Positions 2,407 through 8,565 of a stretch of 64,000 nucleotides of DNA are shown here, one piece after another; within the stretch, counting starts at the first letter, position 1, and every line of letters begins with the position of its first letter. Position numbers and translations under genes: made by a program. Below the pieces are notes generated by a model. It worked only from the letters and a program-made list of their open reading frames with translations, made no database searches and was not told the DNA's origin. Where the stretch lies: sequence record LR597660; one strand, given 5' to 3'. Source of the stretch: Escherichia phage T4_ev151.

Positions 2407-3411
2407 TTAACTTACCAATTCAATCCAAGCCGGACGAAGTACATCTTGTACCATTTTAACTAATTCCTTTTTAACTAAAGAAGGATTATCTGCTTGAGTT
2501 AGAGTAATACCTTCACGAGAAGTTTCTTCCAAAATATCTTGAACAGTTAGTCCCATCACCTTTCCAAAATCTTTTGGACCAATTTCGCCAATTTTAGAAA
2601 TAACGTTATTTACTCGGTTTAGTGTAACGTAACAAGCTAAAATCCCCACCAATTTGTTATCAGCTTCTGACAGTTCAACTTTAGCTTTAATAAGCTTATC
2701 AGACTTTTTCTTTTCACTAAATTTAGAATTCTTGCATTTGATGGCTACACGATTTCCATTATGAAGCCAAGAAGGATAACAAGGTTTCAATACATATCCT
2801 TCAGCGGTAAATACTTCGCCTTTGGCTTCAGCTTTCCAAACGCATTTATTTGCATCAACTAATCCAGCATGGTCTACTGTAAAATTATAATCTTGGACGA
2901 CAGAATCTAAATCATTTGGCAATTTAATAAGCTCTTCAAATTTACCGCGACCTAAAAGTGGAGCCATTTTAAATTTAAATGTATTGCAGAATGATTCCAT
3001 CATATAATCGTCGACATAAGTCACATCACCACTTTCTGTAGTGACAATAATGTCAAATACATAAAAATCTTTATCACCATAATCAACATTCTTCTGAATG
3101 CCAGGTCCAGCGAATTCGCCAAAGACTTGATAAGATACAACCGCTGAGGTTTCCATAATATTTTGTACTGCTTTAATGGAATCAGCGTAATTCTTTAAAA
3201 TAATTTCATAACCGAAGAAATCTTCAGCAGGAAGAATCGGTCCAGTACGTTTAGCACAAGTTACTTTATCACGCTCAATAATCAATGAGAAATTTGTGCC
3301 GTGAATCTTTTCACGAGCTACCCATTCGCCGCCAGTCAATCCTAAGCTATAAAGTTTTTCAATAAATTTAGAGTTGTAATGATTTTCAAGACTGCTATAC
3401 TTTTTAAACAT
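2407..3411 (-). CDS. rnlB: RNA ligase 2 (Rnl2)
   Basis: 334 aa; N-terminus [21 protein letters not shown] with KxHG nucleotidyltransferase lysine motif; length equals T4 Rnl2. Confidence 0.9.
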
Positions 3412-3420
3412 AATTAATCC

Positions 3421-3699
3421 TCAAAATGTAATTTCTAACCAATCACCATCACGCTGATCACTATTGACTTTAAAGCTGAATCCTTCTTTTCTCAGCCAAT
3501 CACCAATTTCTTCAGTAATCAATTTATCACGAGCAATACAATAATAATTAAAATGTGTTTTACCTTGTTCAGCTGCTTTATTAGCAAGTTCCGAAAAATC
3601 TTTAATAAAACACTCTAGTTTAAACTGTTTACTTTTTAATGCTTTTTCACGTAATTGATTAGCAAAAGATTCATTTTCATAAAAATCATACTGTTCCAT
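3421..3699 (-). CDS. hypothetical protein (T4 24.2 position)
   Basis: 92 aa ORF between rnlB and hoc on the same strand as flanking genes. Confidence 0.6.
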   Translation of the reverse strand: MEQYDFYENESFANQLREKALKSKQFKLECFIKDFSELANKAAEQGKTHFNYYCIARDKLITEEIGDWLRKEGFSFKVNSDQRDGDWLEITF

Positions 3700-3901
3700 T
3701 TTTCACCTTTTTATTAATATGTCTTTTTCTATAGACAACTTTTTCTCGAGTTTCAAATTTATTCTTAGCAGTCATAGCTCGAGCCCATAATACAGCCACT
3801 TCTTTTGCCTGTAAGTTCAATTCACGAGCAATTTCAATGAATGACTTTCCAGACTCATGAAGAGTAAACACCACAACCTCAGTTCTCATAATCAATCTCA
3901 T
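3686..3901 (-). CDS. hypothetical small protein (T4 24.3 position); start uncertain
   Basis: 71 aa ORF overlapping the previous ORF; start codon not checked. Confidence 0.5.
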   Translation of the reverse strand: MRLIMRTEVVVFTLHESGKSFIEIARELNLQAKEVAVLWARAMTAKNKFETREKVVYRKRHINKKVKNGTV

Positions 3902-3967
3902 GTTATCGAGTTGGTGCCATTATATACATCATTTTCTGAGTGTGTTTTGTGTGCTTTCAAAATGAAG

Positions 3968-3986
3968 AAAGGGGCCGAAGCCCCTT
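3968..3986 (-). terminator. stem-loop downstream of hoc
   Basis: AAAGGGGC-CGAA-GCCCCTT hairpin immediately 3' of the hoc stop on the - strand. Confidence 0.5.
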
Positions 3987-3990
3987 ATGA

Positions 3991-5697
3991 TTATGGATAG
4001 GTATAGATGATACCAGTTTCTAAAGCAGTTTTATGAATGATGTATCCATTACGCGATTCTTGGACATCAACTTCTGGATAATCTTTCATCATCTTCTGGA
4101 GAGTGTAACGATGCAAGTAGTACTTACTATCTGGATCGTCAGTTTTCCAATCTTTACCTTCTTCGGTCATTTTTTGGATTTCATCCATAACCCACCAACC
4201 GCACCAGATATAAGCCGAAGTACGATGTGGAAGAGGATGAACATAAGGCAATTCACCTTCTGGTTCTGGAGCAACTTTATCAGTTACCTGAACTTGACCT
4301 TCTGCTGTGATAGTTTTGCTATCATAATCAGTAGCAGTAACAGTTGCAGTAACTTCAATAGTTTGACTTCCAATAGATGATGTATCAACAGTGTATACAT
4401 TAGTTGACCCTTCTACTGGAGAAGAATCTTTCTTCCATGAATATTCGATTTGTGCTTCTTCTGGAGCATCCGTAACATTAGCAGTAAATGTAGCCGAAGC
4501 ATCTTGCTGAACGTTAATAGAAGGAGGAGTCAATGTAACCCGTGGATTCATTGTTTTCTTATTAACAGTCAATGATACTTCATTAGAAGTAACTTCCTTT
4601 TCATTGTAATTTTCTGCAGTTACTTGCGCTACACACTTAACTGTTTTAGCTCCAACTGTGGTAGGAGTATAGTTAAATGTAGTAGTAGTTTCTCCATCGA
4701 CCAGAGAACCGTCAACATACCACTGATACGTAGCAGACGCTCCTGGTGGCTGTGAAGCCAAGGCAGCAGTAAATTGAACTGGGGTTCCAATTACTGCTGC
4801 AGCAGGATTAGCAGGAGTTACGGCTAACGTAGTTGTCTGTGTTTTCTTATTAACTGTTAATGATACTTCATTAGAAGTAACTGTTTTTGCGTCATAATCT
4901 GTTGCTGTTACTTGGGCTACGCATTTAATTCTTTTAACCCCACTTGTAGTTGGAGTGTAATTGAACGTAGCATTAGTTTCTCCACCAACTTGTGAATCAT
5001 CTACATACCACTGATACGTAGCAGATGCTCCTAGCGGCTGCGAAGCTAAGGCAGCAGTAAATTGAACTGGGGTTCCAATTACTCCTGCTGGAGGACTATC
5101 AGGAGTTACTGCCAAAGTAGTTGTCTGCTCCTTTTTATTAACAGTCAGTGATACTTCATTAGAAGTAACGCTTAGTGCATCATAATCTGTCGCAGTTACT
5201 TGAGCTACACACTTGATTTTTTTAACTCCGCTTGTGTCAGGAGTGTAATTGAATGTAGCGTCAGTTGCTTCGTCTACAGGAGAACCGTCAACGTACCACT
5301 GATATGTGGCGTTTGCGCCAGATGGCTGCGAAGCTAAGGCAGCGGTAAATTCAATTGGAGTTCCAATCACTCCAGCATCAGGGCTACCAGGAGTTACAGC
5401 TAAAGTAGTTGTTTGTGTCTTATTTTGAACTGTGATAGTTGTACTAATTTCAGCTGTTTCAGCTTCACTGTCAGGAACTGGATTTGTTGCAACTACTTTA
5501 ATAGTTTTCTGGCCTGCAGGCCCCTTTAATACATAACTAAAAGTTGCTGACGTTTCTTCCTGTGGAGCACCGTCTACAGTCCAAGCATATGTAATAGGTC
5601 CATCTCCAGTTTGACCACTGGGTGTAGCAGTAAACTGCTGAGTCTGATCTATAACTCCAGTAGGTGTTTTAGGAGTTATATCAACTGTAAAAGTCAT
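3991..5697 (-). CDS. hoc: outer capsid decoration protein Hoc, extended variant with extra Ig-like repeats
   Basis: 568 aa; C-terminal capsid-binding tail (...YIWCGWWVMDEIQKMTEEGKDWKTDDPDSKYYLHRYTLQKMMKDYPEVDVQESRNGYIIHKTALETGIIYTYP) matches recalled T4 Hoc; preceded by repeated ~96-aa Ig-like modules; ATG with AAGGA SD. Confidence 0.85.
   Translation of the reverse strand: MTFTVDITPKTPTGVIDQTQQFTATPSGQTGDGPITYAWTVDGAPQEETSATFSYVLKGPAGQKTIKVVATNPVPDSEAETAEISTTITVQNKTQTTTLAVTPGSPDAGVIGTPIEFTAALASQPSGANATYQWYVDGSPVDEATDATFNYTPDTSGVKKIKCVAQVTATDYDALSVTSNEVSLTVNKKEQTTTLAVTPDSPPAGVIGTPVQFTAALASQPLGASATYQWYVDDSQVGGETNATFNYTPTTSGVKRIKCVAQVTATDYDAKTVTSNEVSLTVNKKTQTTTLAVTPANPAAAVIGTPVQFTAALASQPPGASATYQWYVDGSLVDGETTTTFNYTPTTVGAKTVKCVAQVTAENYNEKEVTSNEVSLTVNKKTMNPRVTLTPPSINVQQDASATFTANVTDAPEEAQIEYSWKKDSSPVEGSTNVYTVDTSSIGSQTIEVTATVTATDYDSKTITAEGQVQVTDKVAPEPEGELPYVHPLPHRTSAYIWCGWWVMDEIQKMTEEGKDWKTDDPDSKYYLHRYTLQKMMKDYPEVDVQESRNGYIIHKTALETGIIYTYP
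4558..5421. repeat. three tandem copies of a ~288-bp unit inside hoc
   Basis: Landmark string cttattaac(a/t)gt(c/t)a(a/g)tgatacttcattagaagtaac recurs at ~4558, ~4846, ~5134 (period 288 bp = 96 codons); protein shows SNEVSLTVNKK...TTLAVTP...ATYQWYVD...IKCVAQVTATDYD repeated. Confidence 0.85.
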
Positions 5698-5706
5698 AAG
5701 TTATCC

Positions 5707-6387
5707 TTATTTTAATGTTACGAAAGAAGAATTGCGTGTTTCACGAATTAAAACTGATCCGTCACGGTTAATGTAATAAATTAAGCTAAATAAAGTTTGG
5801 TGTGCTGACGCGTGTTCAAAACTAGTTGGGTGAGATTTCCAATCCGGAGTTTCAGCTATCCATTGATAAATCCACCAAGGAACGGTGCAGAATCCTGGAT
5901 TTTTTCCAATCAACTGAAGATTCGGGCTAAAGTTTTCCGGAAGAGTAAATACAGACGGCTTTTCAGATTCAATAATCTCAGCTACAGCCTGTTCAAATTT
6001 TTCTTCAACAAAAGGAGTATCTTCAATCAAAACATCGGCATTTTCGGGAATTTTATCCGTTTCTACTACTTCAATTTTAATGTCAGATTTAACCGGAGAA
6101 TCAATCAGAAGTGCTGCTTCTGGATTGACTTCTTCATCGTCATATTTTAATCCCTCTGCAGCATCAGCAGCATCAATTAAGTCTTTAATAGATAACCCAT
6201 CAGTCTCTGGCATAGGTTCACTAGCGAGCTTCTGGAGGGCTTCTTCAATATCAACAACGATATTATCAAAAGATTTATTCTTTTTGACCTTTATACCAAA
6301 CTGTTCAGCATATTCAGCTAATTTAGCTTTAGCTTCTTTGTTATCATCAAGAGCCTTCAGCTCTGCAATATAATCTTTATCTATCAT
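5707..6387 (-). CDS. inh: inhibitor of prohead protease (Inh)
   Basis: 226 aa acidic protein between hoc and segD, as in T4; ATG start verified. Confidence 0.75.
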   Translation of the reverse strand: MIDKDYIAELKALDDNKEAKAKLAEYAEQFGIKVKKNKSFDNIVVDIEEALQKLASEPMPETDGLSIKDLIDAADAAEGLKYDDEEVNPEAALLIDSPVKSDIKIEVVETDKIPENADVLIEDTPFVEEKFEQAVAEIIESEKPSVFTLPENFSPNLQLIGKNPGFCTVPWWIYQWIAETPDWKSHPTSFEHASAHQTLFSLIYYINRDGSVLIRETRNSSFVTLK

Positions 6388-6400
6388 AATATTTCCTCAG

Positions 6401-6408
6401 TATAAATA
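6401..6408 (+). promoter_or_regulatory. late-promoter-like TATAAATA upstream of segD
   Basis: Exact TATAAATA 29 nt upstream of the segD ATG. Confidence 0.45.
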
Positions 6409-6436
6409 TAGATATATTTATTACTCGGAAAATAGT

Positions 6437-7054
6437 ATGTACCACTTTGTATATGAAACAACAAATCTAATAAACGGTAAAAAGTATATAGGAAAACACT
6501 CTACTGATGACTTGAATGATGGTTACCTTGGTTCCGGTAAGGCAATTCAGCAGGCTATAAAGAAATATGGTGAAAACAATTTCTCTAGAACAATATTAAA
6601 AGAGTTTAAAACTTCTGAAGAAGCGTACATGTATGAAGAAGAAATTATAACTCCTGAAATAATAAAAAGCAAAAATTATTATAATATGAAACCTGGTGGA
6701 ATTGGTGGAATTGTTATGACTACAGAGGTTATAGCAAAGATGAAAGAATCTTCCGCTAAGAGATTTGAAAACTCACCGGGCACGGTATTAGGTACAACTT
6801 GTTACACCAATGGAACTAAAAATATTTTTATTAAACCTGGAGAACTTGTTCCAGAAGGATTTGTAAAAGGAATGGTTCATCCTAATAGAAAGTCCAGAAA
6901 AGGATGTAAAGTCAAACCGACTACCACAGGAACTTTTTGGGTCAATAACGGTGCAATAAATAAATTAATACAACCAGACGGTATTATTCCCGACGGATTT
7001 ATTAAAGGTCGTCTCATGAAAAGAGATTCTAAAGGCAAATTTAGTAAGGCATAA
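6437..7054 (+). CDS. segD: free-standing GIY-YIG homing endonuclease (Seg family)
   Basis: 205 aa; N-terminal ...VYETTNLINGKKYIGKHS... GIY-YIG-type motif; C-terminal duplicated I(P)xGF(V/I)KG DNA-binding-like repeats; sits between inh and uvsW as T4 segD. Confidence 0.75.
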   Translation: MYHFVYETTNLINGKKYIGKHSTDDLNDGYLGSGKAIQQAIKKYGENNFSRTILKEFKTSEEAYMYEEEIITPEIIKSKNYYNMKPGGIGGIVMTTEVIAKMKESSAKRFENSPGTVLGTTCYTNGTKNIFIKPGELVPEGFVKGMVHPNRKSRKGCKVKPTTTGTFWVNNGAINKLIQPDGIIPDGFIKGRLMKRDSKGKFSKA

Positions 7055-7056
7055 TT

Positions 7057-8565
7057 ATGGATATTAAAGTACATTTTCACGACTTCAGCCATGTACGCAT
7101 CGATTGTGAAGAGAGCACGTTCCACGAATTAAGAGATTTCTTTTCGTTTGAGGCCGATGGATATAGGTTTAATCCTCGCTTCAGATATGGCAACTGGGAT
7201 GGACGAATCCGTCTTTTAGATTATAATCGTCTTCTTCCATTTGGCTTGGTCGGGCAAATTAAAAAGTTCTGTGATAACTTTGGCTATAAAGCCTGGATTG
7301 ACCCACAAATTAACGAAAAAGAAGAATTATCAAGAAAAGATTTTGATGAATGGCTTTCTAAATTAGAAATCTATTCAGGAAATAAAAGAATTGAACCACA
7401 CTGGTATCAAAAAGATGCAGTGTTCGAAGGATTAGTTAATCGTCGTAGAATTCTTAATCTTCCAACATCTGCAGGTAAATCGTTAATTCAAGCTCTGCTT
7501 GCTCGGTATTATTTGGAAAATTATGAAGGTAAAATTCTTATCATTGTTCCAACAACTGCTCTAACAACTCAGATGGCTGATGACTTCGTTGACTATCGTT
7601 TATTCAGTCATGCAATGATAAAGAAAATTGGTGGCGGAGCATCAAAAGATGATAAATATAAAAATGATGCACCAGTCGTTGTTGGTACATGGCAAACTGT
7701 AGTAAAACAACCGAAAGAATGGTTCTCACAGTTTGGAATGATGATGAATGATGAATGCCATCTTGCTACAGGAAAAAGTATTTCATCTATCATATCAGGT
7801 TTAAATAACTGCATGTTCAAATTTGGTCTATCTGGTTCATTACGTGATGGCAAAGCCAATATCATGCAGTATGTTGGAATGTTTGGTGAAATATTTAAGC
7901 CAGTAACGACTTCTAAGTTAATGGAAGATGGACAAGTAACTGAGCTAAAAATTAATAGTATTTTTCTTCGCTATCCCGATGAGTTCACTACTAAATTAAA
8001 GGGAAAAACTTATCAAGAAGAAATAAAAATTATTACTGGGCTCAGTAAAAGAAATAAATGGATCGCTAAATTAGCTATTAAGCTTGCGCAAAAAGATGAA
8101 AACGCTTTTGTCATGTTTAAACATGTATCGCACGGTAAAGCTATTTTCGATTTAATTAAAAATGAATACGATAAAGTTTATTACGTATCAGGGGAAGTTG
8201 ATACCGAAACCCGCAATATAATGAAAACTTTAGCTGAAAATGGTAAAGGAATAATTATAGTAGCTAGTTATGGTGTATTTTCTACTGGTATTTCAGTTAA
8301 AAATCTACATCACGTTGTTTTAGCGCACGGTGTTAAATCAAAAATCATTGTATTACAAACAATCGGTCGTGTATTACGTAAGCATGGTTCTAAGACAATA
8401 GCAACAGTCTGGGACCTCATAGATGATTGTGGTGTTAAGCCAAAATCTGCTAATACGAAAAAGAAATATGTTCATTTGAACTATCTTTTAAAACACGGCA
8501 TTGATCGTATTCAGCGCTACGCAGATGAAAAATTTAATTACGTAATGAAAACAGTTAATTTATAA
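7057..8565 (+). CDS. uvsW: UvsW DNA/RNA helicase
   Basis: 502 aa; Walker A (LPTSAGKS) and DECH box (MMNDECH); T4 position between segD and uvsY. Confidence 0.9.
   Translation: MDIKVHFHDFSHVRIDCEESTFHELRDFFSFEADGYRFNPRFRYGNWDGRIRLLDYNRLLPFGLVGQIKKFCDNFGYKAWIDPQINEKEELSRKDFDEWLSKLEIYSGNKRIEPHWYQKDAVFEGLVNRRRILNLPTSAGKSLIQALLARYYLENYEGKILIIVPTTALTTQMADDFVDYRLFSHAMIKKIGGGASKDDKYKNDAPVVVGTWQTVVKQPKEWFSQFGMMMNDECHLATGKSISSIISGLNNCMFKFGLSGSLRDGKANIMQYVGMFGEIFKPVTTSKLMEDGQVTELKINSIFLRYPDEFTTKLKGKTYQEEIKIITGLSKRNKWIAKLAIKLAQKDENAFVMFKHVSHGKAIFDLIKNEYDKVYYVSGEVDTETRNIMKTLAENGKGIIIVASYGVFSTGISVKNLHHVVLAHGVKSKIIVLQTIGRVLRKHGSKTIATVWDLIDDCGVKPKSANTKKKYVHLNYLLKHGIDRIQRYADEKFNYVMKTVNL

Follow-up and report, generated by a model that had tools for sequence, protein, structure and literature searches.

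An apparently old triplication of Ig-like domain 2 in the hoc gene of Escherichia phage T4_ev151, one allele of a unit-number polymorphism in Tequatrovirus

Hoc is a non-essential and highly immunogenic decoration fibre of the T4 capsid. In T4 the fibre is linear, about 180 Å long, and is composed of three Ig domains and the domain D4, as described within PMC10385173. The 64,000-nucleotide stretch of Escherichia phage T4_ev151 DNA analyzed here (record LR597660; hereafter the window) encodes a Hoc of 568 amino acids, and a sequence-only reading of it attributed the excess over the 376 aa of T4 to tandem Ig-like modules. The locus therefore raises the question of what the additional length consists of, how and when it arose, and what it may do to the capsid fibre.

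The gene occupies positions 3991..5697 on the minus strand, where the ORF listing contains an intact reading frame of 568 codons plus a stop codon that starts with ATG. Its identification as hoc, proposed from the sequence, is borne out by a match of the protein to PHROG 1149 "Hoc-like head decoration" (E 1e-174), by a phmmer match to the T4 Hoc chain 5vf3_Z (E 3e-206), and by the gene order rnlB / 24.2 / 24.3 / hoc / inh / segE-like / uvsW, which is the T4 order. The order of ORFs around hoc also matches that of YUEEL01, ime09 and VEc74, and that of the called genes of L028. The Pfam models PKD (54.9 bits versus a cut-off of 23.5), Ig_2, Ig_3, PKD_3 and BiPBP_C all exceed their cut-offs, on the repeated part of the protein and on the domain D3 that follows it. 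The SegE-like neighbour of hoc is a GIY-YIG endonuclease. Immediately upstream lies inh, the gene for the prohead protease inhibitor (5707..6387, minus strand); hoc starts 9 nt past the inh stop codon and is preceded by an AAGGA ribosome-binding site, and the two genes are probably co-transcribed. An intrinsic-terminator-like hairpin, AAGGGGCTTCGGCCCCTT followed by a T-run (3959..3986, minus strand), starts 5 nt past the hoc stop codon. It is a pattern match from a consensus scan, and the record of phage fPS-90 carries an annotated terminator at the corresponding place. Other candidates inside hoc, namely the ORFs at 4033-4380 (plus strand, opposite to the gene) and 4629-4790 (minus strand, nested) and a terminator-like match at 5356-5374, were rejected as products of chance in coding DNA that is rich in repeats.

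Within the gene, Tandem Repeats Finder reports a single array at 4552-5418, with a period of 288, 3.0 copies, 80% matches and a score of 1064. A repeat finder likewise returned three 288-nt copies, spaced by exactly 288 nt, with two of them 82% and 76% identical to the one taken as reference. The self-identity of hoc at a lag of 288 nt is 0.80, as compared to 0.328 +/- 0.020 at all other in-frame lags (~23 sd), and the repeat is therefore far beyond chance. These approaches agree on the three tandem 288-bp (96-codon) units that had been read from the sequence, and the span then given, ~4558-5421, is correct, given that the phase of a tandem repeat is arbitrary. In protein register each unit starts with TTTLAVTP and ends with SNEVSLTVNKKxQ/M. 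The units had also been called near-identical, with a few substitutions, and this description does not stand. Designating them A, B and C in protein order, nucleotide identity is 77.8% for A/B, 76.0% for A/C and 81.6% for B/C, and amino acid identity is 82%, 73% and 79%, respectively; pairs of units are separated by 53-69 differences over 288 nt and by 17-26 over 96 aa. A recent, recombination-prone array would be marked by near-identical units that share long stretches of perfect homology; here the longest perfect match between any two units is 21-36 nt. By the Nei-Gojobori method the three paralogues are separated by a dS of 0.56-1.0 with a dN/dS of 0.12-0.27; each unit has been kept under purifying selection.

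The array is flanked by more diverged copies of the same module, as the sequence-only reading had held. An HMM built from the three units detects the N-terminal domain D1 (aa 1-95; 5413..5697, minus strand) over aa 2-95 with 30 bits, and the domain D3 (aa 384-476; 4270..4548, minus strand) over aa 386-476 with 33 bits, and these two domains are 36-45% identical to the units. Between them, all on the minus strand, lie three copies of Hoc domain 2: unit 1, of type A (aa 96-191; 5125..5412), which groups with the first-position units of other two- and three-unit Hocs, unit 2, of type B (aa 192-287; 4837..5124), and unit 3, of type C (aa 288-383; 4549..4836). Pfam Ig_3 and I-set match aa 385-469, within D3. 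The capsid-binding C-terminal domain D4 (aa 477-568; 3994..4269, minus strand) is not Ig-like and was assigned by its near-identity to T4; PHROG 21694 matches its aa 504-568 (E 1e-41). The layout of the protein is D1-A-B-C-D3-D4, six domains of which five are Ig-like, and D1 is the distal tip of the Hoc fibre.

Structure prediction is in keeping with this layout. An AlphaFold2 model of the 568-aa protein, computed from a 38-sequence alignment (mean pLDDT 83.8), contains five all-beta modules with pLDDT values mostly of 85-95, and of about 78-91 in D1. Together with the unit HMM it upholds the original estimate of about five Ig-like modules, for which structure prediction had been suggested as a check. 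D4 is partly helical and of low confidence (pLDDT 43-64), as expected for a domain modelled away from its capsid. Foldseek searches of the PDB return multi-Ig proteins at E 1e-13 to 1e-16, the matches including a carcinoembryonic antigen (CEA) model, DSCAM, PirB, cadherins and GhpA. The whole-chain TM-scores are low (0.13-0.23) because the multi-domain chain is flexible, and they support a "string of Ig-like domains" only. RB49 Hoc is absent from the top 50 of the PDB matches obtained with Foldseek, and searches of PDB sequences at E <= 0.01 recovered T4 Hoc and not RB49 Hoc; a profile search of PDB sequences gave weak matches to antibody constant domains and titin.

Comparison to T4 locates the additional length. 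The T4 hoc gene (record KJ477686) has 1131 nt and encodes 376 aa, the length assumed in the sequence-only reading, with a single domain-2 unit, whereas the window Hoc has three (A-B-C) and is 192 aa longer. T4 thus has fewer modules, and the extra length does come from tandem Ig-like modules, as was proposed. The mass rises from 40.4 kDa in T4 to about 60.8 kDa, and the computed net charge is -28 versus -14. The two proteins share 91 of 92 residues in D4 (T4 aa 285-376), consistent with the conserved capsid-binding C-terminus described earlier, 74 of 95 in D1 and 79 of 93 in D3, and the single domain 2 of T4 is closest to unit B of the window (88 of 96 aa). Structures of T4 Hoc for comparison are PDB 5vf3 chain Z and 8t1x.

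The window allele is the longest of a polymorphism of one, two or three units (1131, 1419 and 1707 nt) within Tequatrovirus. Megablast of the window hoc against 50,697 phage records matched 656 of them. In at least 13 of these, belonging to some dozen phages, the match is a single piece of 1707 or 1713 nt, the best at 94.9% identity; records with a hoc of ~1707 nt are those of ESh36, ESh16, ESh34, ESh26, YUEEL01 (two accessions) and TOPO13, as well as ECML-123-2, OMNI12, KMB26, EC101, UGKSEcP1 and UGKSEcP2. The 568-aa form has a RefSeq entry, YP_010074903.1, from Escherichia phage YUEEL01, and the exact 568-aa sequence of the window is present on two ENA metagenome contigs, such as ERZ28599232 scaffold_191 (62 kb), with the same neighbours. 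Among 60 rows sampled over the whole megablast ranking, the match spanned 1707 nt in 2, about 1419 nt in 14, about 1131 nt in 38 and about 850 nt in 2, and covered the C-terminus only in the remaining 4; in the sampled Tequatrovirus records one unit accounts for ~63%, two units for about a quarter and three for a few per cent. The best 120 of 686 protein clusters from a 5.8-billion-protein collection include 73 of 376 aa, 29 of 472 aa and 9 of 567-570 aa. Eight further 568-aa clusters are found among these 120, and none has a Hoc longer than 567-570 aa. Since a four-unit relative would rank near the top and none was seen, three units appear to be the maximum in this lineage.

The Hocs of YUEEL01, UGKSEcP1, OMNI12, KMB26, EC101, ECML-123-2 and the Shigella phages ESh36, ESh16, ESh34 and ESh26 have the same architecture as that of the window, with 1707 nt and the order A-B-C. 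They are 92-95% identical to it in nucleotides and up to 96% in amino acids, and the allelic differences fall mostly in D1, in unit A and especially in unit B (89% nt), whose middle segment in the window is nearer to T4 domain 2 than to unit B of ESh36. The two-unit Hocs (472 aa) of ime09 (A-C) and VEc74 (A-B) share the flanking domains, and their units are 86-97% identical in nucleotides to the corresponding types of the window. Each has one unit fewer than the window: unit B is absent from ime09, and in VEc74 an A-like unit precedes a B unit whose tail is of C/B type.

The unit types were defined on 181 domain-2 units from 126 Hoc proteins: those of the window and of five named phages, and the representatives of 120 clusters. 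With a cut at 16% amino acid distance, these units form three types, A, B and C. By whole-unit classification, the arrangement B is found in 60 of the 126 proteins, A-B in 26, A in 13, A-B-C in 9, C in 9 and A-C in 6, and B-C, A-B-B and A-B-(A/B) in one each. All seven of the order-preserving subsets of A-B-C are represented in this set, and a reversed unit order is found in 0 of its 44 multi-unit genes. Position is likewise conserved between individual phages. Unit 1 of the window is 92.7-96.2% identical in nucleotides to unit 1 of ESh36, YUEEL01 and ime09, and unit 3 has 99.0% identity with its counterpart in ESh36 and YUEEL01 and 97.2% with the second and last unit of ime09; unit 2, at 89.2% to unit 2 of ESh36, is the most diverged of the three. 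The dS values between the window and ESh36 are 0.21 for A, 0.36 for B and 0.03 for C, an unevenness that marks hoc as a recombination mosaic.

Recombination also reaches below the level of the unit. In segment painting, a head (aa 9-34), a middle (aa 43-66) and a dimorphic tail (aa 75-82) reassort among phages, the tail being either ATDYDALS/ATDYDAKT or AENYNEKE. In the window, the A and C units are pure, and the B unit carries the tail ATDYDAKT, the dimorphic form other than that of the type-B consensus. The order of duplication, which was expected to be readable from the substitutions, is not simply readable, because the units are mosaics of reassorting segments. When 4.7 kb around hoc in the window was aligned with five phages, the flanks were 95-100% identical and the Ig-coding part 74-91%, and over 20 kb the nearest backbones to that of the window (96-97%) are those of VEc74, FriedrichMiescher and slur phages (slur02), in all of which hoc has two units. 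Judged from these alignments, hoc alleles evidently move between phage backbones.

How such an array could have come about admits several answers of very different weight. The least credible is that the extra units stem from repeat mis-assembly in a metagenome contig. Tandem repeats are a classic cause of assembly error, and the contigs that carry the exact protein were assembled from metagenomes, but the units are 18-24% diverged, too different for an assembler to collapse or duplicate, the reading frame is intact, and each unit separately matches its orthologues in isolate genomes, of which at least 13 independent records carry the 1707-nt gene; the additional 568-aa clusters of the protein collection point the same way. 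On the grounds that the units are diverged, the frame is intact and each unit is conserved elsewhere, we exclude an assembly artefact, which the sequence-only reading had named as a possible refutation, as having a negligible probability, and take the three-unit repeat as real. It is also very improbable that the units were made lately as near-identical copies, in an array that varies within populations like a contingency locus. Head-to-tail copies with an exact 288-nt period, and a unit number that differs among related phages, are what such an expansion would leave. Opposed to it are the low identity, high dS and short exact runs of the units, the fact that different laboratories have deposited the three-unit layout in at least 13 records, and the presence in other phages of same-position orthologues of every copy. 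Because these orthologues are 89-99% identical in nucleotides while the paralogues are only 76-82% identical, the comparison indicates that the triplication is old and that the units are diverged paralogues. The earlier view of the array as prone to expansion and contraction holds between phages, which have one, two or three units, on an evolutionary scale; it fails for a young or unstable array, given the dS of the units. Copy-number heterogeneity within one phage stock would be expected to be uncommon, since the units are diverged and their exact runs reach only 21-36 nt.

A more serious contender, which we still regard as unlikely, is that A, B and C diverged as single-unit hoc alleles and were joined later by unequal recombination in co-infection. 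The three-unit gene would then be derived and the one-unit state of T4 ancestral. Single-unit genes are in the majority, with ~63% of the records sampled and 82 of the 126 proteins, and are known for each of the three types, and sister Tevenvirinae with two, three and four Ig modules imply that gains occur within the subfamily. Such joining should, however, have produced mixed orders, yet none of the 44 multi-unit genes is reversed and every order-preserving subset is present. An early single A-B-C array, of which the shorter genes would mostly be contractions or recombinants, is preferred as the simplest route to all of these subsets and to no reversed one. Since the sampled Hoc proteins are related, the order-conservation argument carries no formal probability, and the order could instead stem from structural constraint and not from common descent. 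It is nevertheless a better argument than the single-unit chimeras, with an A head and a C tail or an A head and a B tail, which equal recombination between alleles of one unit suffices to produce and which we therefore rejected as proof of unequal crossing-over. We also sought the exact point of deletion between the A-B-C array of the window and the A-C array of ime09, and no clean crossover is callable, as either register shows mismatches across the boundary between units; our claim for this pair is limited to an indel of one unit, in register. From an original A-B-C array, homologous recombination between phages and between units would shuffle the unit segments, and removal of whole units by the same process would be the rarer event. 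Overall, we consider it probable that the window carries an intact hoc allele with an old A-B-C triplication, that this allele belongs to a unit polymorphism, and that it specifies a longer Hoc fibre with the predicted effects described below.

By its near-identity to T4, D4 should, as it does in T4, seat one Hoc monomer centrally on each gp23 hexamer. A linear fibre built from the five Ig-like modules would then be some two modules longer than the 18-nm fibre of T4, an increase by about half to roughly 26-27 nm, and would carry D1 further from the capsid, with the net negative charge doubled and the domain-2 motif NEVSLT tripled. Weak binding to mucins or bacterial-surface glycans is likely to change in reach, avidity or specificity, and the repulsion between virions is likely to change as well. 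Hoc Ig domains bind MUC2 or fucose (PMC11853027), and in domain 2 of the PNJ-9 Hoc the residues S183, L184 and T185 are needed for MUC2 binding (PMC11853027). NEVSLT, at aa 180-185, 276-281 and 372-377 of the 568-aa protein, is the window reading of the hexapeptide N180-T185 that was mutated in PNJ-9 Hoc. Domain 2 of PNJ-6 does not bind MUC2 despite conserved residues 183-185 (PMC11150434, PMC11853027), so that three such motifs need not amount to three binding sites, and extra avidity from them is a hypothesis drawn from the motif. It is conceivable, if rather doubtful, that the extra modules bind no ligand of their own and serve passively, as a spacer or an antigenic decoy that changes immune recognition or the colloidal dispersion of virions. 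The dispensability and high immunogenicity of Hoc would fit this role, as would the doubled negative charge and the part that Hoc plays in keeping T4 virions dispersed according to section 3.7 of Fokine 2023 (PMC10385173). A dN/dS of 0.12-0.27 implies that the sequence of the units is constrained beyond their length, and MUC2 binding is known for domain 2 of a related Hoc (PMC11853027); both observations speak against a mere spacer and are still compatible with one.

Variation in the number of modules extends beyond Tequatrovirus. In sister lineages of the Tevenvirinae, Hoc is 282, ~377 or ~472 aa long, corresponding to two, three or four Ig modules, and changes of module number in steps of ~95 aa are general across the subfamily. 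Hoc homologues are defined by the capsid-binding D4 in the account of Fokine 2023 (PMC10385173), whose section 3.6 gives 1-10 Ig domains for them and lists the Hoc of Serratia phage Muldoon with 1174 aa and 10 Ig domains. The Hoc of Klebsiella phage PMBT63 has 468 aa and four Ig domains (PMC13435897), and that of PNJ-9 lacks domain 3 (PMC11853027). Like the window Hoc, these proteins are strings of Ig-like domains on a conserved capsid-binding domain; they belong to other lineages in which other modules were gained or lost, whereas in the window domain 2 has been multiplied in a close relative of T4. An analogy is offered by crAss-like phages, in which de Jonge et al. reportedly described tandem repeats of the BACON domain in 2019. 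There, a putative glycan-binding domain occurs in variable tandem copy number in a structural protein of a gut phage; fold, protein and phage group are all unrelated to those of the Hoc units.

In the searchable literature we found general statements that the number of Hoc domains varies, and no description of an A/B/C polymorphism of domain-2 units in Tequatrovirus. The variable number of Ig domains has been published and the 568-aa architecture is present in GenBank and RefSeq, so that the window hoc adds one more allele to a class already deposited there, and the population-level pattern of A, B and C units is the sole element that is new, and only mildly so. T4-based vaccines and vectors use Hoc as a display platform, and the protein is the model for the adherence of phages to mucus. 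Natural alleles of one, two and three units in near-isogenic backbones provide a ready set for studying the effects of fibre length and of domain-2 type on mucus adherence, aggregation and immunogenicity, and the three-Ig Hoc of T4 is unrepresentative of the genus. It is possible, though we advance it only tentatively, that the A-B-C triplet is ancestral in Tequatrovirus, that the T4 Hoc is one of several products of contraction, and that hoc is a cassette-like system of surface variation under selection. If so, differences between glycan or mucosal environments, or the pressure of antibodies, would maintain its arrangements and segments, and cassette-like variation would occur in lytic phages that are otherwise nearly identical.

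The Ig-coding part of hoc (window 4100-5600) is a local island of divergence, with 74-91% identity between phages in which the flanking genes on either side (window 2500-4100 and 5700-7200) retain 95-100% identity. Within a single phage pair, dS at adjacent hoc units ranges from 0.03 to 0.36. On its downstream side the gene is followed, 5 nt past the stop codon and on the same minus strand, by a strong GC-rich hairpin with a T-run (AAGGGGCTTCGGCCCCTT, 3959-3986), a sequence arrangement that probably serves as the terminator closing the inh-hoc transcript before gene 24.3. The immediate neighborhood of the variable hoc also carries a presence/absence polymorphism, a gene for a SegE-like GIY-YIG homing endonuclease (205 aa; 6437-7054, plus strand) that lies between inh and uvsW. 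This gene is found in the window, in T4, in the three-unit phage ESh36, in the two-unit phage VEc74 and in FriedrichMiescher, and is absent from YUEEL01 (three units) and ime09 (two units), where inh directly adjoins uvsW.

In Escherichia phage FriedrichMiescher (Bas39), the annotation splits the 1420-nt hoc (1501-2920 of its locus, L005) into two overlapping CDS, labeled "Hoc part 1" and "Hoc part 2", which implies an apparent frameshift within the second unit. Two CDS also underlie the hoc match in several further records, such as vB_EcoM-101117BS1, PM107 and BYEP02. Such split genes may be true pseudogenes or may stem from errors in sequencing. Among the Hoc cluster representatives (the best 120 of 686 protein clusters), P0033 and P0099 carry the titles "endonuclease [Shigella sonnei]" and "endonuclease [Bacillus cereus]"; further representatives are listed as "PKD domain-containing protein [Escherichia coli]". 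These bacterially named clusters are probably misleadingly named T4-like phage contigs within bacterial assemblies.

Variation in module number extends to other Hoc lineages. The cluster representative P0090 (567 aa, 65% identical, 24 member sequences) represents a second, more diverged five-module Hoc lineage. Against a profile built from the three repeat units of the window, its first, second and third middle modules score 173, 96 and 72 bits, respectively, and its five-module layout may reflect an older or independent expansion. The Hocs of sister Tevenvirinae (IMG/VR loci L011-L018 and L021-L024), which begin with MAYTV and end with IIYDYVY, fall into length classes of 279-282, 367-377 and 471-472 aa, corresponding to two, three and four Ig modules, respectively. 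These steps in module number mirror the step-wise polymorphism of Tequatrovirus Hoc.
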